From assembly GCA_902464015.1 (NCBI GenBank), contig CABQHM010000001.1, positions 91,244-155,243 of the forward strand: 64,000 nucleotides of DNA, in the 5' to 3' direction. Source of the stretch: an uncultured Coriobacteriales bacterium (GTDB lineage: Bacteria; Actinomycetota; Coriobacteriia; Coriobacteriales; UMGS124). The notes under the pieces are model-generated. The model saw only the letters and a program-made list of their open reading frames with translations, was not told the DNA's origin and did no database searches. Position numbers and translations under genes: made by a program. Every line of letters starts with the position of its first letter. The stretch's first letter is position 1. Positions 46,532-61,211 of the stretch are shown piece by piece.

Positions 46532-48223
46532 TTACAACTCGAGTCGCTCCGACAAAGCCTTGTTCACAATCTTGAGTGCCTTGACGCGCGCATAGCGCTT
46601 GTCGTCGGACTGTATGATGTGCCACGGCGCATAGGGAGTGGACGTAAGACGCACCATGTCGTCGACGCACTCGTAGTACAGGTCGTTCTTGGCGCGGTTG
46701 CGCCAATCGTCGGGCGTGATCTTCCAGCGGCGAGCAGGATCGGCCTGGCGCGACTCGAAGCGTGCAAGCTGCTCGGCCGAACTCACGTCGATCCAGAACT
46801 TCACGAGCACGGCACCCCAGATACGCAGGTCATCCTCGAACTCGTTGATCTCGTCGTAGGCGCGGCGCCACTCGTCCTTGGTCGCAAACCCCTCGATGCG
46901 CTCCACAAGCACGCGACCATACCAGGTGCGATCGAAGATGGCGGTGTGACCCGAGCGCGGCAGGCGGTTCCAGAAGCGCCACAAGAAAGGACGGGCAAGC
47001 TCGTCGCGCGAGGCCGGGCCAATGGGGTTCACACGATACCCGCGCGCATCCATTGCGGCGGTGAGGCGCTTGATGTTGCCGCCCTTGCCGGCGGCGTCCC
47101 ACCCCTCGTAAGCCACGATGAGAGGAACCCTATGGCGGTACATCTCAAGCGACAGACGCGCCAGCTTCTCCTGCTCGCGCTTCAGCTCATGGTGGTACTC
47201 GTCGTCGCTGTCCATCTCGTGGGGCTTACGGCGCGAGCGGGCCAAGTCGGGCACCGTCTCCAACTCGAACCTCGAGGTAAGCTTGCTCGCGTCTCCCATA
47301 CGGCGCTTGGCCTTCTTTACCTCGCGGGCAAGGATCTCGGGCTCGCTGAGAATCTCGACGGGCTCTTCAGGTGCAGCAGACGGAGCTGCGGCAGCGCCGC
47401 CGGCGGGCGTCTCAAGCGCCTCGCCCTGGCCGATGGGCTGGTCGGGGTCGATGCCGCGGGCGCGCAGGCCTTCGTCCATGCGCCGGACGAGCTCCTCCAT
47501 AATCAAGATGTTGGAGTTGCGGCGAAACTCCGCCGGCACCAGGCACCACTGGTCCTTGGCCGAATCGCTCGTAAGCCAGCGCTCGTAGACCTGCACATAC
47601 TCGTCGTAGTGCTGAATCTGACGAATGTCGGACTGGTCGACCTTCCAGGCGCTCGCCTCGTCACCCATGAGCTCCATGAGCCGACGCGACTGCATCTTGC
47701 GGGTGATGTGCAGGAAGAACTTCACGATGATGAAGCCGTCGTCGGTGAGCTGGCGCTCAAAAGCGCGGGCGGACCTGATGTGCTCGCGCACCCGCTGGTC
47801 TGCCCGGGCTGCCATTTGCACGCGCGCGGCGCTGTCTTGACTCGGGTCTCCCTGCAGGCGTACGTCCTCCACCCAGGCGCGCGACAGTTCGTCGTAGTAG
47901 GCCTGGTCAAAGATGGTCATGGTGCCCCGCTTGCCCAAGCGCATCCAATAGCGCGCCATAAAGGGCAGGCGTCCCTCGTAGCCCACGGGCTCTTCCATCG
48001 TGTGCACGCTGTAGGCGCGCGAGTCAAGGTCAACCACGAGGTCGGAAATGCGGCTTCCCTTGCCTGAAGCGCCCCAACCCTCAAAGAGGATGACCGTGCC
48101 CATGTTTGCCTTGATGGCATGTTGCTGGAGAAGCGCCAGGCGCGTCTTCAGCTCCTCGCGCCGAGCCCGGTACTCATCGCGGCCCATCTCGGCGGGAAAC
48201 ACCATGTCCTTGAGTACGCCCAT
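46532..48223 (-). CDS. ppk2: Two-domain polyphosphate kinase 2 (PPK2; polyphosphate:AMP/ADP phosphotransferase type)
   Basis: Two PPK2 modules: ILFEGWGASGKGSRI..FDQAYY, and IVAYEGWDAAGKGGNI..FDRTWYGRVLVERIEG..PWHII. ATG at 48223 with AGGAGG upstream, 6 nt after the ccmD-like stop. Confidence 0.85.
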   Translation of the reverse strand: MGVLKDMVFPAEMGRDEYRARREELKTRLALLQQHAIKANMGTVILFEGWGASGKGSRISDLVVDLDSRAYSVHTMEEPVGYEGRLPFMARYWMRLGKRGTMTIFDQAYYDELSRAWVEDVRLQGDPSQDSAARVQMAARADQRVREHIRSARAFERQLTDDGFIIVKFFLHITRKMQSRRLMELMGDEASAWKVDQSDIRQIQHYDEYVQVYERWLTSDSAKDQWCLVPAEFRRNSNILIMEELVRRMDEGLRARGIDPDQPIGQGEALETPAGGAAAAPSAAPEEPVEILSEPEILAREVKKAKRRMGDASKLTSRFELETVPDLARSRRKPHEMDSDDEYHHELKREQEKLARLSLEMYRHRVPLIVAYEGWDAAGKGGNIKRLTAAMDARGYRVNPIGPASRDELARPFLWRFWNRLPRSGHTAIFDRTWYGRVLVERIEGFATKDEWRRAYDEINEFEDDLRIWGAVLVKFWIDVSSAEQLARFESRQADPARRWKITPDDWRNRAKNDLYYECVDDMVRLTSTPYAPWHIIQSDDKRYARVKALKIVNKALSERLEL

Positions 48224-48228
48224 ACGCT

Positions 48229-48417
48229 CTATTCCTCCTTGCGCTCGCGACGCTCGATGGCCTCCCTCAGGGCGTCGATGTCCTTCTGAGTCTTCTTCGT
48301 GCGGCTCAGCATCACGATGGCGAACACGAGAAGGATAACCCAAATGAGCGCGTAGCCGGCGATGAGATACGGGGCGGCGTCGATATTGGTGTAAAGCTCG
48401 GCAAGAACGGGATCCAT
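48229..48417 (-). CDS. ccmD: Small single-TM protein, CcmD-like (haem exporter subunit D), assigned by position
   Basis: 62 aa with one TM (YLIAGYALIWVILLVFAIVML) followed by a basic/acidic tail. It lies directly after ccmC, as ccmD does in System I operons. I have no sequence motif to verify the call. Confidence 0.5.
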   Translation of the reverse strand: MDPVLAELYTNIDAAPYLIAGYALIWVILLVFAIVMLSRTKKTQKDIDALREAIERRERKEE

Positions 48418-48465
48418 GGTTGGCTCCTTTGCTAGATACGACGAAACGACAGGCGACGGCCAAGA

Positions 48466-49310: not shown

Positions 49311-50060
49311 CTAGGAGTTGACGATAAACTCGTAGAGGCCCCAGGCTGCGGCAACCATGATGACGTCGTAACCGCCCGCCAGTATAAGGCTGCGCCAGAA
49401 CGTGACCATCTGCCCCTCCACGCCAAGCAGCGCGACGGAGGTGGCGCTCACGCACGCGTAGAGCAGCGGGAAGATGACCGGGATGAAGAGAATCGCGAGC
49501 AGCACGTCCTTGCCGCGCGTGTCCATCGTCATCGTGGACAGAAACGTGCCGACGCCGGCGATGCCGATGGAACCCACGAGCAGCGGCAGCACGATGTAGG
49601 GAGTCGTATCGGCGAGCACAGCCCCCGAGAGGAAGAACACGAAGAACAACGGCACGGCGATGAGCTCCACCACGCAGAGGAACAACAGGTTGGAGGTCAT
49701 CTTGGCCAGGTAGATAGCGGCGCGGGAGACGGGGGCGAGCAACACGCCCTCAAGGCAGCCGTTCTCCACCTCGTTGGCGAAGGAACGGTTGAGGCCCAGA
49801 AGCGAAGTGAAGACGATCATCGCCCACAGCAGGCCCGCCGCCACGGACAAGATGTCGAAGGCGTCGCCGGTCTGGGACATCGTCGCGCCGTAAACCGTGA
49901 GCACAAGCAGCGCGTAGACGCCCATGGAGACGATCATGTCGCGTGTGCGCAGCTCCATGCGCACGTCTTTGATGAGTAGTGCCTTGTACTGAGCCCAGAA
50001 GCTCACGCGAGGAAGGGCGGCCCCACTAGCCTGGCCAGCAGAAGAGCAGTTGGAAGCCAT
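49311..50060 (-). CDS. ccmB: Haem exporter permease CcmB
   Basis: Six-helix profile, FANEVENGCLEGVLLAP (CcmB-like E..G.LE.L..P). Located between ccmA and ccmC. ATG at 50060. Confidence 0.85.
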   Translation of the reverse strand: MASNCSSAGQASGAALPRVSFWAQYKALLIKDVRMELRTRDMIVSMGVYALLVLTVYGATMSQTGDAFDILSVAAGLLWAMIVFTSLLGLNRSFANEVENGCLEGVLLAPVSRAAIYLAKMTSNLLFLCVVELIAVPLFFVFFLSGAVLADTTPYIVLPLLVGSIGIAGVGTFLSTMTMDTRGKDVLLAILFIPVIFPLLYACVSATSVALLGVEGQMVTFWRSLILAGGYDVIMVAAAWGLYEFIVNS

Positions 50061-50064
50061 AGTC

Positions 50065-50784
50065 TTAAGCCACCCCCATTCCGACGGTAGACAGATACAG
50101 CTTGCGGAACGCCTCGCGCTCGAGCGCGGCCTTCTCGTCGAAGCACACCACGCGGCCCGCAGCCAGGATGAGGGCGTGCGATGCCAGCTCATAGCCCTTG
50201 TCAAGGTCATGAGAGACCATGACGAAGGTGCGGCCCCGACGAACGCGCGCGATGAGCTCGTCGAAGAGCTGCATGGCATGCGGGTCCAGGCCCGAGTACG
50301 GCTCGTCGAGCAGCACGATGGCCGGGTCGTTGATAAGGGCGCGCGCAATGGAGAGGCGCTGGGTCATGCCGCGGGAGAACGTGCGGGCCGCATCGTTTCG
50401 CCTGTGGTCGAGCTCGACGAGCTCAAGCAGGTCAAGGATGCGGTTGCGGGCATCGGGCACGCCGTAGAGCTTGGCGAAGAACTCAAGGTTCTCCATGGCC
50501 GTGAGGTCGCCGTACACCATGGGCTTGTGCGAGATGAGCCCGATGCGGCCGCGCAGCTCCTCGGGGTTCTCGAGCGCGTCGATGCCAAGCATGGTGAGAC
50601 TGCCGGCAGTGGGACGGCTCACAGTGGACAGGATGCGCAAAAGCGTCGTCTTGCCTGCACCGTTGGGCCCGAAGATGGAAAGGAACGCACCCTGCGGGAG
50701 GTCGAACGAGACGCCGTCGAGCGCGCGACGGGTCCCGAACGCCTTCTTGATGTCGTGCACCGCAAGCGCGGGGGTCTCCACCAT
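50065..50784 (-). CDS. ccmA: Haem ABC exporter ATP-binding protein CcmA
   Basis: Walker A GPNGAGKTT, signature FSRGMTQR, Walker B VLLDEPYSGLD. Confidence 0.85.
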   Translation of the reverse strand: MVETPALAVHDIKKAFGTRRALDGVSFDLPQGAFLSIFGPNGAGKTTLLRILSTVSRPTAGSLTMLGIDALENPEELRGRIGLISHKPMVYGDLTAMENLEFFAKLYGVPDARNRILDLLELVELDHRRNDAARTFSRGMTQRLSIARALINDPAIVLLDEPYSGLDPHAMQLFDELIARVRRGRTFVMVSHDLDKGYELASHALILAAGRVVCFDEKAALEREAFRKLYLSTVGMGVA

Positions 50785-50788
50785 GGGG

Positions 50789-53008
50789 CTACTCCTTCGG
50801 CTCGGCAGGCTCGGCCGCGCCCTGCTCGCCGGCGCCGCCGGGCAGAACCTCGAGCTGGTCCTTGATCGAGGAGCGCTTGGGGGCGGCAGCGCAGACGATG
50901 CCGATGGTCATGACGATGAAGCCCGCCCACACAAGCGAGATCATGGGGTTGATGCGCGCGTTGACGATGTAGCCCGAGGAGCTGTAGCCCTGGTAGGACA
51001 CGAAGAGGTCCTCGAAGGGGTTGGAGACGGTGCAGGCGGTGACGAAGGTCTGGCCGTAGTAGCTCTTGGCCGTCCACTCCGCGGGGTTCAGGGTGTCGAT
51101 GACCTGCCCGCCCTTGGAGACCTCGACGGTCACGTCGGAAAGGCGGTTGTTCTGCTCGTCGTAGTGAGCCTCGGTGGCGTCGGTGAGCTTGAGCGTGTAG
51201 GCACCCACGCGGGCCGTGTCGCCCTCGTTGAAGATGTAGGTGCGGTCGGTGATGTACATGGCCGAGCCCACCAGGCCGATGAGCACGATGCCCAGGCCCA
51301 GGTGCGTGAGGTAACCACCCGTCTGAGCAGGGGTCTTGGTCACGATGCCGGCAATCGCGCGGGGCAGGCTCTCGCCCTTGTTGTTCATGCGGGCACGCAC
51401 GCCGCGCACGACCAGGTAGGCGGAGTCGGCGACAAGAAGCGAGCCCACGAGCATGGCGATGACCGCAAGGCCGTTGTAATACCAGGCAGGACCCATGTTC
51501 TGCAGGTCGGCGGCGGCGACGGTGTCGGCCTGGGAGAGGTTGGCCTCATAGGCGGGCAGCAAGTTGAAGGCCCAGTGGCCGATGAGCGCCACAGCGAGCA
51601 CGGCCGCGATGATGAGGGGCAGGCGCATGTTGGACCAGAACTGCTTGCCGTCGGTCTTCTTCCACATGAGGAAGGGGCACACGGCAGCCAGGGCGCACAG
51701 GATGACGCCCAGAGGACGGGCGACCGTCTCGTAGGCACCCGTGCCGATGGTGAGGCCACCGGCGGGCAGCCAACTAGGCAGGGCGCTCGACACCGTGAGG
51801 TAGGCAAGCAGGATGCCGGCGAACACCATGACGAGGTTCGTGAGGTAGTACGAACCGTTCTTGGAGACGACCTTCTCGATGTCGTCGGAGCTCTGGAAGC
51901 TCTGGCGACGCATGATCCAGGCAACGAGCAGGACGATCAGGGCGCCGAGCATGACGGCGAGGAACAGGTAGAGCGACACGGGGTCGTTGTCGAAGGCATG
52001 GACCGACTCGACGAGGCCCGAGCGGGTGATGAACGTGCCGAGCACGACAAAGACGAACGTGAGGGTGGCGGTGAAGACGGCCCAGCCCTTCATCATGTTG
52101 CGACGACGGTACACGGTGAAGGTGTGAATCATAGCGACGGCGACAAGCCAGGAGAGAAGCGAGGCGTTCTCGACCGGGTCCCAGCCCCAATAGCCGCCCC
52201 AACCCAGGCAGACGTAAGCCCACACGGCACCCAGACCGATGCCGGCGGTGAGGAAGATGAAGGAGAACAGGGCGATGCGCTGGCAAAGCTCAACCCAGCG
52301 CTTGGAGGGGTCGTTGCACACGAGGGCCGCGATGGCATAGGCGAACGGCACAGTCATGCCGGCGTAGCCGATGAACAGCGTCGGCGGATGGATGGCCATG
52401 GCCCAGTGCTGCAGCAGCGGGTTCATGCCCCAGGCAGTTGCCTGGCCGACAAGGGCGCCGGTGGTCTCGTCGATGTAGGCGCGGTCAGTGAGAATGAAGG
52501 GGTTGTTGCCCGAGCTGAACAGCATGACGGCAATGAAGAGCAGAAGGACGGACATGATGACGACGAGCGCGACATCGGAAAGGTGCTCGGGGTGCCTGTG
52601 ACGACGCCAAGCAACGTAGCCAGCAAAGGCGCTGATGAGAAACGCCCAGGTGAGAAGCGAGCCGGCGCGTCCCGCCCACAGGCCGGCGAGCTGGTAGAAC
52701 CAGAAGAGCGAGCCCGTGTCGGTGGGATACTGGGTGGCGACGTAATACAGGGCGACGTTATGCGTGAAGAAGCCCTCGACGATGATGCCGCAGGCCAGAA
52801 GCAGGGCGAACATGGCGACGAAAACGCAGATGCGACCCACGCGCAGGGAAGCGGCGTCCTTCGACGCGCCGGCCTTGGCCACGCCTTTACCAGCGGGCTT
52901 GCCGGCCTTGAGGTGACCTGCAATCAGCAAGACGATGGCACCGATGGTGGCCGCGAAGGCAACCCACAGCGCCCCCGCGCCAATGGCGCCCATAGCATAC
53001 GAAACCAT
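50789..53008 (-). CDS. ccmF: Cytochrome c-type biogenesis protein CcmF (haem lyase/haem handling)
   Basis: WGGYWGWDPVENASL WWD motif and about 15 TM helices. ATG at 53008 with AAGGAGAGG 7 nt upstream; the track start is a TTG at 53014. Confidence 0.9.
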   Translation of the reverse strand: MVSYAMGAIGAGALWVAFAATIGAIVLLIAGHLKAGKPAGKGVAKAGASKDAASLRVGRICVFVAMFALLLACGIIVEGFFTHNVALYYVATQYPTDTGSLFWFYQLAGLWAGRAGSLLTWAFLISAFAGYVAWRRHRHPEHLSDVALVVIMSVLLLFIAVMLFSSGNNPFILTDRAYIDETTGALVGQATAWGMNPLLQHWAMAIHPPTLFIGYAGMTVPFAYAIAALVCNDPSKRWVELCQRIALFSFIFLTAGIGLGAVWAYVCLGWGGYWGWDPVENASLLSWLVAVAMIHTFTVYRRRNMMKGWAVFTATLTFVFVVLGTFITRSGLVESVHAFDNDPVSLYLFLAVMLGALIVLLVAWIMRRQSFQSSDDIEKVVSKNGSYYLTNLVMVFAGILLAYLTVSSALPSWLPAGGLTIGTGAYETVARPLGVILCALAAVCPFLMWKKTDGKQFWSNMRLPLIIAAVLAVALIGHWAFNLLPAYEANLSQADTVAAADLQNMGPAWYYNGLAVIAMLVGSLLVADSAYLVVRGVRARMNNKGESLPRAIAGIVTKTPAQTGGYLTHLGLGIVLIGLVGSAMYITDRTYIFNEGDTARVGAYTLKLTDATEAHYDEQNNRLSDVTVEVSKGGQVIDTLNPAEWTAKSYYGQTFVTACTVSNPFEDLFVSYQGYSSSGYIVNARINPMISLVWAGFIVMTIGIVCAAAPKRSSIKDQLEVLPGGAGEQGAAEPAEPKE

Positions 53009-53029
53009 CTTCAAACCTCTCCTTATGAG

Positions 53030-53704
53030 TTACTCGGACTGCACGGAAGCGTCGAGCGCGACATCGGTGGCGACGAACGTCTCGCCGTCGGCGTCCAGAG
53101 CGCCGCTCACCACGACCGCGCTGCCATCCTCCATGCCTTCGGGCAGAGCATCCTTATAGTTGACATTGAGACTTGAACCCTGGGAGTTCACGACGAAACG
53201 CACGTCCTGGGACGCGGCGGCGATGGAGCCCTCGGTGACGTAGCCGGCAAGCTTGACGTCGACACCGACGTAGCTTGCGGGAGAAGCGGCGATGACGGCA
53301 GCCGTGACCGCGCCCTCGGCGCTTTCGTACTTGGAGGGACACTTGGTGGCAAGCTCGGAGCACAGCAGCGTGCCGTCCTGCAGGGTGCCCGTGCAGATGG
53401 CAGTCACGCCCGTGCCGAACGAGGAGGGCATGCCCTTGCCGTAGATGACCTCGAGCTCGGCATTGGAGCCTTCCTCGGAGCCGGCAATCTTAAAGATGCA
53501 GTTCGTTCCCTCGGTGGCGTACGAGTCCTTGACGACAGGGCCGGACACCTGGATCTTCTTGCCCTCGTAATCGCCCGAGACAGCCTGCTCCACCGTGAGC
53601 GTGGCGGCAGCCGCACCGCCTCCCAGCACAGCGAACAGCGCGAGGGCGACAACGACGATCACGAGTCCCACAACGATGAGGCGTTTTTTGGCTGCTTTGT
53701 TCAT
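53030..53704 (-). CDS. ccmE: Haem chaperone CcmE, tandem-OB variant with a Cys-type (CxxxY) haem-binding motif
   Basis: N-terminal TM anchor. OB domain 1 GKKIQVSGPVVKDS..LEVIYGKGMPSSFGTGVTAICTGTL ends in KCPSKY (TGTCCCTCCAAGTAC at 53341-53327). A second OB-like copy, GVDVKLAGYVTEGS..LNVNYKDALPEGMEDGSAVVVSGAL, lacks a haem motif. Confidence 0.8.
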   Translation of the reverse strand: MNKAAKKRLIVVGLVIVVVALALFAVLGGGAAAATLTVEQAVSGDYEGKKIQVSGPVVKDSYATEGTNCIFKIAGSEEGSNAELEVIYGKGMPSSFGTGVTAICTGTLQDGTLLCSELATKCPSKYESAEGAVTAAVIAASPASYVGVDVKLAGYVTEGSIAAASQDVRFVVNSQGSSLNVNYKDALPEGMEDGSAVVVSGALDADGETFVATDVALDASVQSE

Positions 53705-53869
53705 ATGAAAAAGCCCTCCCTCTCCACGTAGAGCAGATACATGCATTCAAAACAGCATGGTACCTGCCCGCCATGGGAAGGAAAGGCTTGAAAGGCTTTG
53801 TTGTGAAAATGCAACTTTTAAAACGATGAGCTACTCAGCTGCGAGAAATGGGCAACGAGCTGCGGATTC

Positions 53870-54475
53870 CTAACGCGCGGCAATGGAAGGGATGGCAGCG
53901 CGCAGGGCCCAGGCAACCAGCACGGCGGCAACGCACTTGAGCACGTCGGGCAGGATGAAGGGAACGACGCAGACGCCCAGCACATAGCCGAGCTCGACCG
54001 AGGTGCCGGCCAGGGCGCTCACCGCGATGAAGTGAGCGGTGCCGATGGCGTAGCACACGACAACGGTGGCCACGCAGGCAACGACGTCAGAGGCGATGCG
54101 GCGCGGCTTGCCGGCGCGGGCGGGATCGCCCAGAACCAGACGGCGCAGCAAGGCGCCCAGAAACGCCGAGACGACGAAGCCGTAGAGGTAGCCGCCTGTG
54201 ACACCGCAGAGCTTGGCAAAGCCGCCGGCGGCACCGGAGAACACCGGCAGGCCCACAAGGCCGAGGAGGATGTAGCCGGCAAGGGCGATAAAAGCCTGGC
54301 GCGGGGTGAAGATGAGCGAGGCGAGCACCACGACGAGCAGCTGCAGGGTGAAGGGAACTGGGCCAATGGCCACGATGACCTGGGCCGCCACCGCAATGAG
54401 CGCGATGACGACACCGCACTGGGCGATGTCGAGCGTGGAGATGCCGGGCTTGGATACGGCGGCCGTCTGATTCAT
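53870..54475 (-). CDS. bioY: Biotin transporter BioY (ECF S-component)
   Basis: VPFTLQLLVVVLA, LLGLVGLPVFSGAAGG and GGYLYGF. ATG at 54475. Confidence 0.85.
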   Translation of the reverse strand: MNQTAAVSKPGISTLDIAQCGVVIALIAVAAQVIVAIGPVPFTLQLLVVVLASLIFTPRQAFIALAGYILLGLVGLPVFSGAAGGFAKLCGVTGGYLYGFVVSAFLGALLRRLVLGDPARAGKPRRIASDVVACVATVVVCYAIGTAHFIAVSALAGTSVELGYVLGVCVVPFILPDVLKCVAAVLVAWALRAAIPSIAAR

Positions 54476-54541
54476 GCGGGTGCTCCCTCTTCTCATATGG
54501 ACAAACCTCAACGATGCGCTCATGCGCAGGCGTGGAGTCTA

Positions 54542-55387
54542 CTACTCGGGGCGCAGCGAGACCATTTCGGACGTGTAAACAACCTCGACGCCATCGTCGC
54601 GCCTGACAGTGGCGCGGCCCCAGCAGTCCAGGCCGGCGAAGTACCCCGTGCAGACCAGCTCGCCTTCGGGAGAAAGTGCCCTCAAACGGTGACCCAGCAG
54701 GGGGCAGCAGTCGAAGTACTCGTTGAGGATGGGGGCGAGGGGGCCGGCCTGGGCCCTCCCCTGCCGACACGCAAGGTCCCAGGCATCCACACGCGCCACA
54801 ATGCGGCGGCGCAGGAGCTCGGCGACATCCTCGAAGGCAGGAAGCTTCGAGGGGTCTTCAACCAATTCCTCCAGGCACGTACGCGCCAGGGCCTCGGGGC
54901 TCGGGACGGCATCCGTCTCGGGGGTCGCTTGGGCCTGAGGGGCGCTGTCAGCCATGGCGGGGGCCACGTTGACGCCGACGCCGCACACGGCAAAGGTACC
55001 CATGGCAGAAGAGCCAGCCTCGACGAGGATGCCGGCAAGCTTGGAAGGGCCCGCGATGATGTCGTTGGGCCACTTGAGCGCCGCTTGGGCGATGCCGAGG
55101 TCGTCGCGCAGGCAGTCGAGCACGCCCAGGGCGCACACCGCAGGCAGGCCGGTGAAGAAGTGCATGGGCACGCTGGGCCTCAAGACGCATGAGAGATAGA
55201 GGCTGCCGCGCGGCGACTCCCACACGTGGCCACGCCTGCCGCGACCCGCCGTCTGCACACGGGCAGCGACGGCAGAGCCGTGCGGAGCCCCCTCGCGGGC
55301 CGCCTCGCGGGCGTCGTCATTGGTGGAAGTGGTCACATCTACGACCCTGAGCAGGTCGTTTGTCTCGAATTGCGACAAGGTGCTCAT
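54542..55387 (-). CDS. birA: Biotin--[acetyl-CoA-carboxylase] ligase (group I, no HTH domain)
   Basis: QTAGRGRRGHVWESPRGSLYLS (GRGRxGR.W motif), KWPNDI, GILVE. Confidence 0.85.
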   Translation of the reverse strand: MSTLSQFETNDLLRVVDVTTSTNDDAREAAREGAPHGSAVAARVQTAGRGRRGHVWESPRGSLYLSCVLRPSVPMHFFTGLPAVCALGVLDCLRDDLGIAQAALKWPNDIIAGPSKLAGILVEAGSSAMGTFAVCGVGVNVAPAMADSAPQAQATPETDAVPSPEALARTCLEELVEDPSKLPAFEDVAELLRRRIVARVDAWDLACRQGRAQAGPLAPILNEYFDCCPLLGHRLRALSPEGELVCTGYFAGLDCWGRATVRRDDGVEVVYTSEMVSLRPE

Positions 55388-55440
55388 GGGAGCCGCCTTT
55401 CAGGATAAAGTTCGAGTTGAAGGTACAGGTAAGCTCGAAT

Positions 55441-56793
55441 CTAGGCGAGGTTGCCCAGGACGCGCTCGATGTGGCCCACCCGCTGCTCGGCCGGCACGCA
55501 TGCGATGCCCTCACGGGCGCAAAACGCCTCGACGTCGCCCACGAGGTCGCCGAGGGGCACAAGCACAAAGTCGCGCTCGCCGATGAGGGGATGCGGGCAG
55601 GTAAGGCGCGGGCCCGCATGGCGCTCGCCTTCCATCCACAGCAGGTCGACGTCGAGGCAGCGGGGGCCGTTTTTCACCGTGCGCACCCGTCCCGCAGCAT
55701 CCTCGATGCCGAGAAGCGCCTCGATGAGGGCGCGGGGGTGCAGACGGGTAGAGACCTCGACCACGGCGTTGGCGAACAGGTCCTGGTCGCCCAGGTAGGC
55801 AGGCTCGGTCTCGTAGACCCTGCTTGCGGCGACCACTCTGGTCTGAGGCAGAGCGTCGAGAGCGGAGCAGGCGGCCTTGAGCGAGGCCAGGCGGTCGCCC
55901 ATGTTGCCGCCCAGGGCGATGAAGGCACGACGGGCGGGAGCGATGCCCACGCATGCCTCCAGGCAACGCAGGGCCTGAGCGCTGGTGCGCACGTCGTGGA
56001 CACGCACGATGCGGGCACCTGCCAAGGCTGCCGCACACACCACACCGGCCGTTGCCGCATCGCGGGCAACCGCGGGGTTGGACCCGGAGACGGCGCCGAC
56101 AAAGCGCTTGCGCGAGGGGGCACACAGATAGGGATAGCCCAGGCGCGTCATGGCCGAGGTGGCCGCCTGCACGGCAAGGTCCTCGTCGGCGTTCGTGCCA
56201 AAGCCAGGACCTGGGTCAATGCAGATGGAAGAGGGGTCAACGCCTGCTTGCTCAAGCACGTGCGCTTGATGCAGCAGGTACGCCTCGACCTCACGCGCGA
56301 AGCCCTCGGGGTCCTTGCCCGCGTCGGCTCGCGCCTGGCCTGCCAGATAACCCTTGCAGGCGTGCATGGCCACAACACCGCAGCCATACTCAGCGGCAAC
56401 CCGCACCATCTCGGGGTCCTCGAAGCCCGAGACGTCGTTGAGGATGTGCGCGCCTGCGTCAAGCGCGGCTCGCGCGACACCTGGATGGCGCGTGTCCACC
56501 GAGACGAGCACGCCGCGTGCCGCAAGGGCCTCGACCACAGGGACGACGCGGGCAATCTCCTCGTCCTGCCCCACCGGCGTAAAACCGGGGCGGGTGGACT
56601 CGCCGCCCACGTCGATGAGATCGGCACCGTCGTCGAGCATCTTGTCGGCCCAGGCGAGCGCCTCGGCAAGGGAGTCGTGCGCGCCGCCGTCGCTGAAGGA
56701 GTCGGGCGTCACGTTGAGCACTCCCATGATGCGGGTGCGCCCCAAGTCAAGCACGCGACTGCCACAGCGCCACTCTTGTGCCAGCTCAGCCAT
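55441..56793 (-). CDS. folP: Fused dihydropteroate synthase / 6-hydroxymethyl-dihydropterin pyrophosphokinase (FolP-FolK)
   Basis: N-terminus: IMGVLNVTPDSFSDGG, DVGGESTRPG, DPGPGFG. C-terminus: AFIALGGNMGDR, YETEPAY, GPRCLDVDLL and HPLIGERDFVLVPL. Confidence 0.85.
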   Translation of the reverse strand: MAELAQEWRCGSRVLDLGRTRIMGVLNVTPDSFSDGGAHDSLAEALAWADKMLDDGADLIDVGGESTRPGFTPVGQDEEIARVVPVVEALAARGVLVSVDTRHPGVARAALDAGAHILNDVSGFEDPEMVRVAAEYGCGVVAMHACKGYLAGQARADAGKDPEGFAREVEAYLLHQAHVLEQAGVDPSSICIDPGPGFGTNADEDLAVQAATSAMTRLGYPYLCAPSRKRFVGAVSGSNPAVARDAATAGVVCAAALAGARIVRVHDVRTSAQALRCLEACVGIAPARRAFIALGGNMGDRLASLKAACSALDALPQTRVVAASRVYETEPAYLGDQDLFANAVVEVSTRLHPRALIEALLGIEDAAGRVRTVKNGPRCLDVDLLWMEGERHAGPRLTCPHPLIGERDFVLVPLGDLVGDVEAFCAREGIACVPAEQRVGHIERVLGNLA

Positions 56794-56807
56794 ATCGCAG
56801 CCCTCCC

Positions 56808-57365
56808 CTAGTCGAGAAGCGAGAGGGCGCGGGCCGCAAGGGCGGCGTCATCGGCGAAGACACCACGCGTCGCCAGGGTCACCGTGTGCGAGCCGGGCTT
56901 GGAGACGCCGCGCATCGTCATGCACATGTGCTCGGCGCTCATCTTGACGATGACACCCTGAGGGGCAAGGTTGTCCATCACCGCGTCAGCCACCTGCGAG
57001 GTGAGACGCTCCTGAAGCTGCAGGCGACGCGCAAAGAGCTCCACCGTGCGGGCAAGCTTACTGATGCCGCAGACACGACCCTGCGCACTGGGCAGGTAGG
57101 CAACGTGGGCCACACCGTAGAACGGCAGCAGGTGGTGCTCGCACATGGAGAAGAACTCGATGTCGCGCACGATAACGATCTCGTGGTGGTCGGCCTCAAA
57201 CATCGTGGTGAAGAGTTGGGCCGCGTCCTGCCCCATGCCGCCAAGAAGCTCCGTGCAGGCGCGTGCCACGCGGGCGGGCGTGTCGAGCAGGCCTTCCCGC
57301 GCGGGGTCCTCCCCCATTCCCTCAAGAATCAGGCGGACTCCCTGCTCGATCTTGTTCGAATCCAT
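56808..57365 (-). CDS. folE: GTP cyclohydrolase I
   Basis: [37 protein letters not shown] at 57365. Confidence 0.9.
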
Positions 57366-57561
57366 CAAGTGACGACCTCCCAGACGGGCCATGCAGCCGG
57401 CGCGTTTGACGCCTTCCAGCAATTCTCAGCAGAAATGTGCGCCCAATTGTAGCAGTCATGGCCGAGGTCCCCGCCCCGCCAAGGGCTGCTATCATGGCCT
57501 GCGCACACCCAGGGTGCCCTCGCAGCAGCGCGGGGCACGACGAGGAAGGAACGCCCGGGCA

Positions 57562-58344
57562 ATGGAGACACAGAACAAGCCGCTGCGCTTTGTGAGCTGG
57601 AATGTGAACGGCCTGCGTGCCGTGATGAAGAAGGGGTTCGCCGAGCTTTTCGACAGCTTCGACGCTGACGTGGTGGCTCTGCAGGAGACGAAGCTTCAAG
57701 AGCCTGACCAGGAGAAACTCTGCTTCAGGCCCGAGGGCTACCATCAGGTGTGGAACTACGCCGAGAAGAAGGGCTACTCGGGCACGGCCGTGTTCAGCCG
57801 CGAGGAGCCCCGCAGCGTGCGCATGGGGTTCGCCGACGACCCCGACAACGAGGGACGCATCTGTGCGCTCGAGTTCGATCGGTATTGGTTCGTGGACGTC
57901 TACACGCCCAACGCCCAGGAGGGGCTGGCGCGCATCGACTACCGCATGGCGTGGGACAGGCGCTACCGCGAGTTCCTCAAAGACCTTGAGGCCACCAAAC
58001 CCGTGGTCACCTGCGGCGACTTCAACGTTGCGCACAACGAGATCGACCTGAAGAACCCCGGTCCCAACAGGGGCAAGGCAGGCTTTTCCGACCAGGAGCG
58101 CGCAGCGTTCACCGAGCTGCTCGACGCCGGCTTCGTCGACACCTTCCGCATGCTCCACCCCAGCCTCACCGGGGCCTACAGCTGGTGGAGCTACCGCTTC
58201 AAGGCCCGCGAGAAGAACGCCGGCTGGCGCATCGACTACTTCCTCGTAAGCGAGGCCCTGGCAGGCAGAGTGGCCGACGCCTCCATCCTCAGTGACGTCT
58301 ACGGCTCAGACCACTGCCCGGTAAGCCTGGACCTCATGCTGTAG
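57562..58344 (+). CDS. xthA: Exodeoxyribonuclease III
   Basis: LRFVSWNVNGLR, ALQETK, CGDFNVAHNEIDL, WWSYR and GSDHCPV. ATG at 57562. Confidence 0.9.
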   Translation: METQNKPLRFVSWNVNGLRAVMKKGFAELFDSFDADVVALQETKLQEPDQEKLCFRPEGYHQVWNYAEKKGYSGTAVFSREEPRSVRMGFADDPDNEGRICALEFDRYWFVDVYTPNAQEGLARIDYRMAWDRRYREFLKDLEATKPVVTCGDFNVAHNEIDLKNPGPNRGKAGFSDQERAAFTELLDAGFVDTFRMLHPSLTGAYSWWSYRFKAREKNAGWRIDYFLVSEALAGRVADASILSDVYGSDHCPVSLDLML

Positions 58345-58385
58345 GGTCATATTCGCCAAGCACGCACGCCTGCACCATATATACA

Positions 58386-58437
58386 AAGAGGGGCCGACCC
58401 AGCCTTGCGACACGCGCAGGCTCGGCCGGCCCCTCTT
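58386..58437. terminator. Candidate bidirectional terminator between convergent xthA and fbp
   Basis: 11-bp stem AAGAGGGGCCG (58386-58396) / CGGCCCCTCTT (58427-58437) with a partly self-pairing 30-nt interior. Modest T-runs on both flanks. Confidence 0.45.
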
Positions 58438-58461
58438 GTGTGTTTGGCAATTCCCTGGAGC

Positions 58462-60030
58462 TTAGAGCGCCTGGGCGGTATGGCCCATGTCGACGCAAGA
58501 AGTGCGCACGGCATCCAGGCCGGGGAAATCGGCATGGCTCACCAGCGTGAGCTCGTCGCCCTTGCGCACGAGCGTGTAGCCAGCAATGCCCGTGGTCTTG
58601 CGATAGGCCTGGCAGAGGCCTCCATCGATCACGAGGCGGCGGCCCTCGGCACGCACGGGATTCTCGCCCTTGGGCAGCTTCACCGGCGTGTGGCCGTTCA
58701 CGATGCGGCCGTGCACGGGGTCGACCCCGAACTCGGCAAGCACCGACTGGGCCGCATGCGCATCTTCGCGCGTGAGGGCATAGTAGGGATCCTCAGGCTC
58801 GGTCCAGGTGGACTTGTCCTCAAGGTAGGTGCGCTCGAACGTCTTGACGACGCGGCCCGCAAACGTGGACTGCCAGCCGCACCAGAGGTACCCCATCCAG
58901 TCGAGGTCGGTCTGGCGGCGCTCCTCCCAGGCGCGACGACACAGGGCGTCGACCCAATCAAGCAGGAGCCTGCCGGAGCGCGCCACACCAGAGCCGCAGT
59001 CTACCTGGGCAAGCGTGCCGTCCTCGTTCATGGGGACGCAGCCGTGGAAGAGCAGCAGGTCGCCGTCGACCTTGTAGACCGAACCGTGGTCGTAGAGCCA
59101 CTGCACCTGCGACTGCAGCCTCTCGCTCGACAGGAACGCCTCGACGAGCCCATCGAGCACCTCCTGCTCGCGAGCCGTGAGCGCAAAGGGGTCGGCCACG
59201 TCGAACGTGGGGAAGTCGCGCGTCTTGAGCGGATAGAGGGCGTCGCCGATTCGCACCTGGCCGGCTTCCAGGTCCATTGCGGCCCACAGGAGACGCTCGT
59301 CCATGTGCCACTCGGGGTGACGGCGCACGGCCTGGCCCTCGCACTTGAACAGGATGGCGTTCATGGCCTTGAGGCACGGCGTGAGCGAGCCCTCTTCGGT
59401 GTAGGTGTCTTCGGCGAACGTGAAGAGGGGCTCCAGATCGATGTCGTAGCCCTCTTCGAACTGCTCGACGTTCATGTACTTGATGTTGTTGCGCAGAAGC
59501 GTCGCGATGCACACGGGGTCGCCGGCAGCGGCGCCCATCCAGCACACGTCGTGATTACCCCACTGCACATCGACGCGAGGGGTGGAGATGAGGGTCGCCA
59601 TGACCTCGTCGCCACGCGGGCCGCGATCCCAAATATCACCGATCAGGTGGAAGGCCCCCGTGCAACGCTGGCGCACATCTTCGGCCAGGTCAACGAGGTC
59701 GTCGACGTCGAGGCCCTCGCACGCGCGCTCCCACTCGTCCTCGTAGGCAAACTCAGGGTAGTAGAGCAGCGTACACACGCAGTCGAGCTCCTCGGAGGAG
59801 AAGCCCTCACCCAAAGTCTGCTCAACAAAGCGACGCACCTGGCCCGAGGCGGAACGCACAAGATGGTCGAACGCCAGCGAGTCGCCGTGGATGTCGCTCA
59901 TGAGCTGCTCGTCAACGGGCGTGCATGCCGCAAGCGCCGCATGCACGCACACAATCGCCTCGGCAAGGCGGTCGGGAGCGATGCAGACAGAACGCTGTGC
60001 GTCGTACGGTTTGAAGGCGGCCTCTTCCAT
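58462..60030 (-). CDS. fbp: Fructose-1,6-bisphosphatase class 3 (Firmicute-type Fbp)
   Basis: HLIGDIWDRGP, QWGNHDVCWMGAA, LLRNNIKY, LLFHGCVP and IVNGHTPVK (metallophosphoesterase core). ATG at 60030 with AAAGGAG upstream. Shorter at the N-terminus than the versions I remember. Confidence 0.75.
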   Translation of the reverse strand: MEEAAFKPYDAQRSVCIAPDRLAEAIVCVHAALAACTPVDEQLMSDIHGDSLAFDHLVRSASGQVRRFVEQTLGEGFSSEELDCVCTLLYYPEFAYEDEWERACEGLDVDDLVDLAEDVRQRCTGAFHLIGDIWDRGPRGDEVMATLISTPRVDVQWGNHDVCWMGAAAGDPVCIATLLRNNIKYMNVEQFEEGYDIDLEPLFTFAEDTYTEEGSLTPCLKAMNAILFKCEGQAVRRHPEWHMDERLLWAAMDLEAGQVRIGDALYPLKTRDFPTFDVADPFALTAREQEVLDGLVEAFLSSERLQSQVQWLYDHGSVYKVDGDLLLFHGCVPMNEDGTLAQVDCGSGVARSGRLLLDWVDALCRRAWEERRQTDLDWMGYLWCGWQSTFAGRVVKTFERTYLEDKSTWTEPEDPYYALTREDAHAAQSVLAEFGVDPVHGRIVNGHTPVKLPKGENPVRAEGRRLVIDGGLCQAYRKTTGIAGYTLVRKGDELTLVSHADFPGLDAVRTSCVDMGHTAQAL

Positions 60031-60035
60031 GGTCG

Positions 60036-61211
60036 TTACTCCTTTCCCTGTGCAACTGATTCGGGCACGTCGGTGGCCATCGGGCAGCCAGAAAGCGAAG
60101 TGATGTCGCGAGGCAGGCCGTCGGGGCCAAGCTCCCAGCCTTCCTCGCGCGCCTCGCGTGCCACGACTGCCTTCATCGCGGCGATGGCGCACTCAAGGTG
60201 GCAGGTATCGGGCTCGTTGGTGGTGATGAGCTGCATGGCCATACCCGGGGCAAGCACGATCTTCACCAGAGGGTTGTCGGGATGCTGGCCGGCCCAGCGC
60301 ACGGTGACCTCATAGGAAAGGCCCGCCACAATCGGCAGCAAGACGATGCGGGTGAGAAGCACCACCAGGAAGCGCCCCACGCCGCCCTCGAGGCCCAGGG
60401 CCTCCACGAGCATGTCGGTGGGGAACACGGTGAACACGATGATGGACACGATGAGCACCATGATGATGAACGCGGTGCCACAGCGCACATGCTGGCGGGA
60501 GAACGCCATGCAGTTCTCGGGCGTGAGTGGGAGGCCATGCTCCAGGCAGTGGATTGTCTTGTGCTCCGCGCCGTGGTAGCGGTACATCTTCCTGATGTCA
60601 GGCATGAGGGCGATGAGCCACATGTACAGCACGAAGATGGCGGCGCGCAGCACGCCGTCGAGCAGGTTCCACGCAACCATGTTGTCATGGGAGTAATCGC
60701 CCACGACGAGGTTGGTCACAAAGGCAGGCACGAAGATGAAGAGGGCCACACCCAGCAGCACGCCCAGGGCCATGGAAACGGCCATCCAGCCGGCCATGCC
60801 CTTCTCCTCGGCTTCCTCGCTGGCCTGTCGCTGCTCCTCGGCAATCTGCTCGGCCGCCTCGGCGCGCGCCGCCTGCTTCTCAGCCTCGCTTTTGCCCTCG
60901 AGCTTCTTGGCCTGCTCCTCGTCCTCGTCGAAGTCATAGGCGTGGGCGGCGGTGATGCCCATGGCCTTGTACTGCAGCACGAGCGACTCAACCATGGCCA
61001 CGCAACCGCGCACGAGCGGCCACTTGCGCCAGGGCTGCTTCTTGCCGTAGCCGGGAACGTCGTGCTCCTCCACGTAGATGCCGCCCTCGGGCTCACGCAC
61101 GGCAACGGCCCAGGAATAGCGACCGCGCATCATGACGCCCTCGAGCATGGCGGCACCACCGATGTGGGTCTGGAAGAGCTCCCCGGTGTTTTGGTCCTTA
61201 GTGTCAGCCAT
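60036..61211 (-). CDS. DUF1385-family membrane protein (YqhQ-like)
   Basis: IGGAAMLEGVMMRG..WAVAVREPEGGI, HGAEHKTIHCLE and multiple TM helices. Contains an acidic coiled insert (DEDEEQAKKLEGKSEAEKQAA..). Confidence 0.75.
   Translation of the reverse strand: MADTKDQNTGELFQTHIGGAAMLEGVMMRGRYSWAVAVREPEGGIYVEEHDVPGYGKKQPWRKWPLVRGCVAMVESLVLQYKAMGITAAHAYDFDEDEEQAKKLEGKSEAEKQAARAEAAEQIAEEQRQASEEAEEKGMAGWMAVSMALGVLLGVALFIFVPAFVTNLVVGDYSHDNMVAWNLLDGVLRAAIFVLYMWLIALMPDIRKMYRYHGAEHKTIHCLEHGLPLTPENCMAFSRQHVRCGTAFIIMVLIVSIIVFTVFPTDMLVEALGLEGGVGRFLVVLLTRIVLLPIVAGLSYEVTVRWAGQHPDNPLVKIVLAPGMAMQLITTNEPDTCHLECAIAAMKAVVAREAREEGWELGPDGLPRDITSLSGCPMATDVPESVAQGKE

Follow-up and report, generated by a model that had tools for sequence, protein, structure and literature searches.

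A tandem CcmE with a Cys-type haem motif between two barrels in Coriobacteriia

We analysed a 64-kb stretch of DNA (the window) from contig CABQHM010000001.1 of an uncultured Coriobacteriales bacterium. The open reading frame (ORF) at 53030-53704 on its minus strand encodes an N-terminally anchored CcmE of 224 amino acids (aa) that consists of two CcmE-type oligonucleotide/oligosaccharide-binding (OB) modules, here called unit 1 and unit 2. Judged from its domains, its motif and the operon around it, the protein is the CcmE of a Cys-type variant of System I cytochrome c maturation, and it departs from that type only in the free-tail feature and in the proteobacterial equivalog cut-offs. It is very probably a working haem chaperone of a streamlined System I operon, ccmE-F-A-B-C-D, in which unit 1 carries the haem and the haem motif lies in the linker between the two barrels. 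To our knowledge, mechanistic and structural work on CcmE all assumes a single barrel with the haem residue on a free C-terminal tail. The gene and its parts are as follows.

53030..53704, minus strand: ccmE coding sequence (CDS), 224 aa plus stop, from the ORF list and the sequence; Pfam CcmE at 100.6 bits in two stretches; conserved M1/N2
53714..53725, minus strand: Shine-Dalgarno-like GGAGAGGGAGGG run, 9 nucleotides (nt) 5' of the ATG at 53704, read from the sequence
53621..53680, minus strand: N-terminal membrane anchor, aa 9-28, after the basic MNKAAKKR; hydrophobic sequence, R8 and L9 invariant
53342..53611, minus strand: OB unit 1, aa 32-121, the probable haem-carrying CcmE module, including Phe96; modelled strands at 50-121
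53312..53347, minus strand: linker block T120-K-C-P-S-K-Y-E-S-A-E-G131
53327..53341, minus strand: haem motif Cys122...Tyr126
53054..53311, minus strand: OB unit 2, aa 132-217, second CcmE-type module with a short strand, a helix and a five-stranded barrel, including the invariant Arg169; recognised by Pfam, by HHalign against unit 1 and in the structural model
53033..53053, minus strand: short C-terminal tail, aa 218-224, in BLASTP register with KCPSKYE of unit 1, Cys and Tyr gone

A longer ORF of 238 aa, starting from an in-frame ATG at 53746, was ruled out as the CDS. Relatives begin MNK, and since M1 and N2 of MNKAAKK are conserved among them (99% and 98%, respectively), the ATG at 53746 is not the start. 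The anchor is a hydrophobic helix of 20 residues after a basic N-terminus, modelled by AlphaFold2 as a helix over residues 3-28, and CcmE residues 1-128 align with positions 1-129 of the NF009728 model. The protein would thus have a single N-terminal anchor and an extracytoplasmic soluble part. A first-pass annotation of the same DNA had remarked on its unusual length, and rightly so: the 224 aa compare with 159 aa in Escherichia coli CcmE and about 125-145 aa in single-domain Cys-type CcmEs.

The tandem repeat and its distribution

The Pfam profile PF03100 (CcmE) matched two stretches of the whole protein, of which unit 2 was the better. Measured against the curated cut-off of 24.6 bits, unit 1 alone (aa 30-131) scored 51.3 bits over profile positions 5-98 of 99, and unit 2 alone (aa 132-224) scored 54.4 bits over positions 8-89. 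Because the unit 2 match ends at position 89, the motif-bearing end of the family is missing from it. BLASTP aligned the two units at 24% identity (E 0.001), and an HHalign comparison of their profiles placed 83 columns in register with a probability of 98.7% (E 2.9e-16). These profiles and the conservation counts given below are drawn from 81 species-level sequences, i.e., the window and 80 genome loci. What is repeated is the whole soluble module and not the barrel alone, comprising a short strand, a helix and five strands at residues 32-118 and again at residues 129-215. The register places Cys122 on Ala219 and Tyr126 on Ser223, with the chain ending at residue 224, and unit 2 therefore bears a degenerate copy of the tail. 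The first-pass annotation had described a tandem of two OB units of which only the first carries a Cys-type CxxxY; the two Pfam matches, the HHalign result and the alanine and serine at residues 219 and 223 bear this out, including the boundaries of the units. Its placing of KCPSKY at nt 53341-53327 holds for Cys122 to Tyr126, and the range omits, trivially, the Lys121 codon (nt 53344-53342, minus strand), which lies one codon 5' of the motif.

The protein does not reach the NCBIfam CcmE equivalog models (e.g., NF009727), its best whole-protein score being 66.6 bits against a cut-off of 126. As those models are built on proteobacterial His-type proteins, the tandem protein is a CcmE by domain and not an equivalog of those subfamilies; database annotation names it 'cytochrome c maturation protein CcmE'. 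An assembly or fusion artefact could be ruled out, as an ORF of the same 220-230 aa is present in each of the 80 species loci and again in over 800 clusters (90% identity).

An AlphaFold2 model of the full-length protein, computed from a 51-sequence alignment, showed five-stranded barrels at residues 50-121 and 150-217 with a mean predicted local distance difference test (pLDDT) score of 86. The pLDDT falls below 50 at residues 124-127 and the predicted template modelling (pTM) score is 0.45, which in the model indicates a flexible linker between the barrels and no fixed packing of one domain on the other. The best matches of the full model among solved structures were CcmE 2KCT (top), 8CE8 chain E, 1LM0, 1SR3 and 1J6Q. 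The first-pass annotation had staked its reading beforehand on unit 2 folding as an OB domain, and in silico it is predicted to do so: modelled alone, unit 2 reached a pLDDT of 91.8 and a pTM of 0.80, and the top three PDB matches of this model in Foldseek were all CcmE, namely 1LM0 (template modelling (TM) score 0.72, query-normalised), 1SR3 and 8CE8_E. Full-length fold matches also included Teb1 AB, Deinococcus SSB and HIN-200, tandem-OB proteins which, like the CcmE studied here, have two consecutive OB barrels per chain. These are nucleic-acid binders with 9-14% identity to tandem CcmE and no sequence relationship to it, and since the model does not fix the domain orientation with confidence, the likeness is uninformative on function.

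Relatives with the same layout are numerous. A word-indexed protein search returned 802 clusters at E <=1e-3, and the best 120 of these were nearly all 219-232 aa long, with CPSKY present in 119. An exhaustive search of 1.84 billion representatives gave 503 matches, including about 55 clusters (50% identity) of tandem length; the other matches listed were either fragments of tandem proteins or single-domain proteins, the latter about 125-145 aa long, aligned to residues 5-130 and ending soon after K-C-P-S/T-K-Y. In GTDB contigs, with one genome per species, at least 513 stretches encode a relative. The best 80 of these all encode a full-length tandem CcmE and are nearly all labelled Coriobacteriia, with labels comprising Collinsella, Adlercreutzia, Slackia, Gordonibacter, Raoultibacter, Rubneribacter, Ellagibacter, Senegalimassilia and unnamed Coriobacteriia, Coriobacteriales and Eggerthellaceae; the few implausible taxon labels probably reflect mis-binning. 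Within the Eggerthellaceae the tandem form occurs in Adlercreutzia, Gordonibacter, Slackia and Raoultibacter. A relative with 97% protein identity to the CcmE of the window is encoded in a metagenome-assembled genome (MAG) from Hadza gut, labelled 'uncultured Coriobacteriales' (CAKUAI010000009). When a profile of the most divergent tandem members was used, the named tandem sources were only Actinomycetes, Coriobacteriia or Adlercreutzia, and the next-best matches were single-domain Cys-type CcmEs, including a single-barrel protein with KCPTKY from an Anaerolineales MAG. On the basis of these sequences, the tandem layout is the norm across the class Coriobacteriia.

The two CcmE modules go back to an ancient event in which the soluble module was duplicated, or fused, in its entirety. 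The unit 2 profile scored 40.8 bits against E. coli CcmE and 37.7 bits against Shewanella CcmE. With some single-domain Cys-type proteins its score rose to as much as 53 bits, and fragments with unit 1 only gave it no more than 21-24 bits. The unit 1 profile in turn reached up to 70 bits against other single-domain Cys-type CcmEs, with 22.5 bits for E. coli and 24.3 bits for Shewanella. A recent internal duplication was considered and is not supported, given the 24% identity of the units and the fact that each profile is closer to some single-domain CcmEs than the unit 2 profile is to unit-1-only fragments. The low identity together with the profile scores points either to an old duplication with asymmetric divergence or to a fusion of already diverged ccmE genes, both compatible with what about 80 alignable columns and distance methods can show.

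The haem motif as an internal loop

The residues expected to hold the haem are found on unit 1. Cys122 and Tyr126 of the KCPSKY that follows it are each present in 81 of 81 species, and the block T120-KCPSKYESAEG-131 is 96-100% conserved within the close-relative family. There is no counterpart of this C/HxxxY in unit 2, where the columns equivalent to Cys122 and Tyr126 are variable or gapped across the species. Phe96 of unit 1 (80/81) aligns with Phe103 of E. coli CcmE, which we take to be the hydrophobic haem-platform residue; the equivalent position in unit 2 is occupied by V, I, M or L. Another 98 residues follow Tyr126 and are predicted to form a folded domain, which makes the haem motif internal.

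Unit 1 contains a second near-invariant cysteine, Cys104 (53393-53395, minus strand), in an A-I-C-T-G strand, which is present in 75 of the 81 species and might serve in redox chemistry or a disulfide; Cys115 is found in about half of them. Among tandem-length relatives encoded on short contigs, three read K-C-P-E-K-K/Q, with the Tyr lost (P0143, P0148 and P0164), and one reads K-C-P-S-K-W (P0168). A seven-sequence cluster of tandem length, P0171, also from short contigs, reads N-Q-P-A-E-Y, with the Cys lost.

Among characterised proteins, the Cys-type CcmEs of Desulfovibrio desulfuricans, D. vulgaris (2KCT) and Methanosarcina acetivorans share with the tandem CcmE the anchor, the OB barrel and a Cys-type motif right after the last strand. 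K-C-P-S-K-Y recurs exactly in many single-domain relatives, and the D. vulgaris construct has TKCP at this place; in a PDB sequence search, 2KCT aligned to residues 71-126 of unit 1 (E 0.23). The variant System I of Desulfovibrio and M. acetivorans, marked by a Cys-type CcmE and no CcmH or CcmG (Allen 2006 and Goddard 2010, as cited in PMC9084895 and PMC3884852), and the tandem ccm operon are also alike in having no ccmH in the operon. In Cys-type single-domain CcmEs the chain stops between a few and about 20 residues past the motif, whereas in the tandem CcmE a second CcmE module of about 90 residues follows. A further difference is Cys104, which is near-invariant in the tandem unit 1 and replaced by Ile in D. 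vulgaris CcmE. The His-type CcmEs of E. coli (1SR3, 8CE8 chain E) and Shewanella (1J6Q, 1LM0) have the same fold and occupy the same place in the pathway as the tandem CcmE, which carries Cys where their motif has His. It is unit 2 that lies closer than unit 1 to these His-type proteins, in the PDB sequence search (E 2e-4), in the profile scores for E. coli given above and in the Foldseek comparison (TM score 0.72). Desulfovibrio and archaeal Cys-type CcmEs have a single barrel, which for the archaeal proteins follows in part from the position of Cys120 at the expected end of such a barrel.

The position of the motif sets the tandem protein apart. Canonical CcmE holds its haem on a 'flexible C-terminal tail'; His130 and Tyr134 of CcmE face the membrane in the cryo-electron microscopy complex (PMC10457321). 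In contrast to this free C-terminal tail, the motif of the tandem CcmE is a loop held at both ends, and the tail copy after unit 2 has no motif. In M. acetivorans, Cys120 of CcmE is required for haem attachment, and the C-terminally tagged wild-type protein still carried haem (PMC9084895); an extension after the motif is therefore no bar to attachment. The first-pass annotation had stated that CxxxY variants bind haem covalently through Cys. This is broadly right for M. acetivorans and for D. desulfuricans CcmE, which is cited there as binding haem via its Cys (PMC9084895). It does not extend to D. vulgaris CcmE, which, according to one review, binds ferric haem non-covalently via Cys127 (PMC3884852), and the covalency of Cys-type CcmE is thus not uniform in vitro.

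By homology, unit 1 would carry the haem: it retains the platform residue Phe96, and C122-P-S-K-Y126 comes right after it. CcmC, with its WWD loop and two His residues, would load haem onto Cys122, after which Tyr126 would ligate the iron. CcmAB, probably together with CcmD, would free holo-CcmE, and CcmF would take over the haem for attachment to apocytochromes. As the motif lies in a linker of about 12 residues between the barrels, it would have to enter the WWD pockets as a loop. With a whole bacterial class carrying its CcmE motif between two barrels, the motif appears able to work as an internal loop, and the question arises of what the second barrel does. Nature has thereby provided, in the tandem CcmE, a way to test the engagement of WWD sites by the CcmE motif.

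We searched the full-text literature on CcmE and cytochrome c maturation in connection with CXXXY, Coriobacteriia and Gram-positives and found no description of a two-domain CcmE; most subscription journals lie outside the coverage of that search, and an earlier mention of a two-barrel CcmE may exist.

Possible roles of unit 2

Unit 2 appears to be constrained about as much as unit 1, and the crude numbers agree in this respect. Mean pairwise identity was 0.50 in unit 1 and 0.47 in unit 2, compared with 0.77 in the linker, 0.39 in the helix before unit 2 and 0.34, the lowest value, in the tail. The ratio of nonsynonymous to synonymous substitutions (dN/dS), from a simple Nei-Gojobori count over the 41 least diverged pairs, was 0.36 for unit 1, 0.44 for unit 2 and lowest, at 0.17, for the linker; these values are only indicative, as the pairs are GC-rich, codon-biased and partly saturated. 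Unit 2 also has conserved residues of its own: Arg169 (81/81), Lys151 (77/81) and Phe170 (76/81). The Arg169 codon lies at 53198-53200 on the minus strand, and the equivalent position in unit 1 is variable. In the second barrel, Arg169 stands out as a candidate for a functional role.

These observations bear on the idea that unit 2 is a functionless, slowly decaying relic of the duplication. Loss of the Cys/Tyr motif and of the platform Phe would suit a relic, as would the tail and the preceding helix evolving fastest. Set against this are the intact tandem ORF, with unit 2 at full length, in 80 of 80 species loci, relatives in at least 513 species genomes, the similar identity and dN/dS of the two units, the invariance of Arg169 and near-invariance of Lys151 and Phe170, and a module still recognised by Pfam CcmE at 54 bits and modelled with a pLDDT of 92. 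We regard a relic as very unlikely.

Nor is unit 2 likely to serve as a second haem-binding or relay site, holding a non-covalent second haem or handing haem on. His and Cys are absent from residue 132 to the end in 53 of the 81 species, and the unit 2 barrel has no conserved Tyr, Met, His or Cys column among them. With no conserved Cys, His or Tyr ligand, and with an aliphatic residue at the platform-Phe position, we infer that unit 2 binds no haem. Its genuine CcmE fold speaks for such a site, as do profile scores exceeding those of unit 1 on E. coli (40.8 vs 22.5 bits) and Shewanella CcmE (37.7 vs 24.3 bits), yet taken together the evidence makes it highly improbable.

The first-pass annotation had suggested that the duplicated unit might act as a spacer suited to a cell wall, and as stated this is unsupported. 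Coriobacteriia are Gram-positive, and a reach-extender for a thick Gram-positive cell wall would agree with the named tandem sources, which, barring a few probable mis-binnings, are Coriobacteriia or unresolved actinobacterial MAGs from Gram-positive lineages. However, the Chloroflexota are monoderm as well, and the Anaerolineales MAG encodes a single-barrel, Cys-type KCPTKY protein; archaeal CcmE, whose motif is of the same Cys type, likewise functions in cells that lack an outer membrane. The absence of an outer membrane therefore needs no second barrel. Furthermore, unit 2 is C-terminal to the motif and does not lengthen the tether between anchor and haem. A spacer is also not obviously needed because the WWD haem sites of CcmC and CcmF are at the membrane surface (PMC10457321). 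We consider this explanation improbable.

An alternative is that unit 2 replaces CcmH/CcmI in handling apocytochromes, holding the unfolded substrate beside the haem. OB folds often bind extended ligands, and neither the operon nor its neighbourhood shows a ccmH or ccmI gene, here or in the gene-called related loci. On the other hand, according to work cited in two sources, Desulfovibrio matures its cytochromes c with a Cys-type CcmE and no CcmH, and archaea, whose CcmE is also of the Cys type, do so in the absence of CcmD, CcmH and CcmI (PMC9084895, PMC3884852). The replacement of CcmH/CcmI by unit 2 thus seems quite unlikely.

A docking or lid-like, shielding role is possible for unit 2, in keeping with the docking module that the first-pass annotation had entertained beside the spacer. 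Unit 2 might fold back over E127 and E130 of the acidic linker and over the side of the haem left exposed, or it might contact CcmC or CcmF. This is our best guess, put forward tentatively; holo-CcmE would in this way be shielded or made more stable where its compartment opens to the medium. The only hints of fold-back or docking, speculative in themselves, are the invariant Arg169 and the conserved Lys151 opposite the invariant Glu127 and Glu130. A more specific and rather doubtful version is a two-jawed, clamshell-like carrier, in which unit 2 would close over the otherwise solvent-exposed face of the Cys122-bound haem through Arg169 and Lys151 on the acidic linker and open only at CcmF, the duplication then adapting System I, a pathway usually found in the periplasm, to the open membrane surface of Gram-positives.

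Besides the merely indicative dN/dS values, several points weigh against a unit 1 carrier with unit 2 as its lid or docking surface. The motif is not universal in the wider family, as the Tyr is gone from some tandem relatives (KCPEKK) and the Cys from one cluster (NQPAEY). No c-type cytochrome gene, i.e., no CxxCH-rich ORF, was found within the 64-kb window. Finally, the predicted structure shows no confident inter-domain contact and gives the lid idea no direct support.

The tandem CcmE may also be of practical use. Cytochromes of the c type take part in the conversion of drugs and dietary compounds by Coriobacteriia, among them Eggerthella and related genera. When Koppel et al. produced Eggerthella lenta Cgr1 in heterologous hosts, haem c was not incorporated, and they suspected that the maturation factors were incompatible (PMC5953540). 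The compact ccmEFABCD operon with its tandem CcmE is an obvious co-expression cassette for the cytochromes c of gut Coriobacteriia. If unit 2 does close over the haem as a second jaw, this may partly explain why these cytochromes resist heterologous maturation.

The ccm operon and its surroundings

Downstream of ccmE, the minus strand encodes the remaining genes of the operon.

50789..53014, minus strand: ccmF, haem lyase, 741 aa; Pfam Cytochrom_C_asm and CcmF_C; E 1.5e-48 to Thermus thermophilus CcmF 6ZMQ; WGGYWGWDP, HWAMAIHP, IHT and SVHAF kept
50065..50784, minus strand: ccmA, ATP-binding cassette (ABC) ATPase; Pfam ABC_tran; TIGR01189 at 128.1 bits, just below the cut-off of 131.6
49311..50060, minus strand: ccmB, ABC permease, start approximate; Pfam CcmB at 93.2 bits
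48466..49233, minus strand: ccmC, WWD protein; Pfam Cytochrom_C_asm; E 5e-18 to E. coli CcmC; FHVP His, SLHP His and the WGVWWTWDPRL loop kept
48229..48417, minus strand: 62-aa single-helix ORF, probably ccmD; weak TIGR04391 CcmD_alt_fam match (E 0.0025), below cut-off; found by tblastn at the same position in most related loci

The two conserved His residues of CcmC align with the haem ligands of the E. coli protein. The order ccmE-F-A-B-C-D is kept in almost every locus that extends far enough, and also in a divergent environmental clade (loci L083 and L084). The operon and those 8-kb flanks that carry Pfam gene calls showed no ccmH, ccmG or ccmI, in the window and the gene-called related loci; whole genomes were not searched. 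At 741 aa, CcmF is longer than the 660 aa of T. thermophilus 6ZMQ_A, and the PDB sequence alignment spans only residues 49-473.

Some loci deviate from the common arrangement. In Collinsella vaginalis (L011), ccmE occurs without ccmF, ccmB, ccmC or ccmD within 8 kb. One locus (L007) has the order E-A-B-C-D with no ccmF nearby, and another (L045) has E-A-B-C-D-F. In the divergent environmental clade (L083, 10238-13633; L084, 10388-11751), a second Cytochrom_C_asm gene (284 aa) comes after the ccm operon, and in L083 it is followed by a sirohaem-synthase-like gene, a short-chain dehydrogenase gene and a glutamyl-tRNA reductase gene, which ties haem synthesis to haem export.

The operon of the window is flanked by the following genes.

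46532-48463, minus strand: 643-aa protein with two PPK2 (polyphosphate kinase 2) domains, adjoining the ccm operon downstream
53870-54523: BioY
54542-55387: biotin-ligase-family gene
55441-56793: FolP-FolK fusion
56808-57422: GTP cyclohydrolase I
57391-58344, plus strand: exonuclease III-like gene
58462-60192: class 3 fructose-1,6-bisphosphatase

The genes upstream of ccmE (53870-60192) are housekeeping genes unrelated to ccm. Synteny with the closest relatives (L001, L003 and L005) extends to the PPK2 gene, and BioY also stands beside ccmE in the closest relatives.

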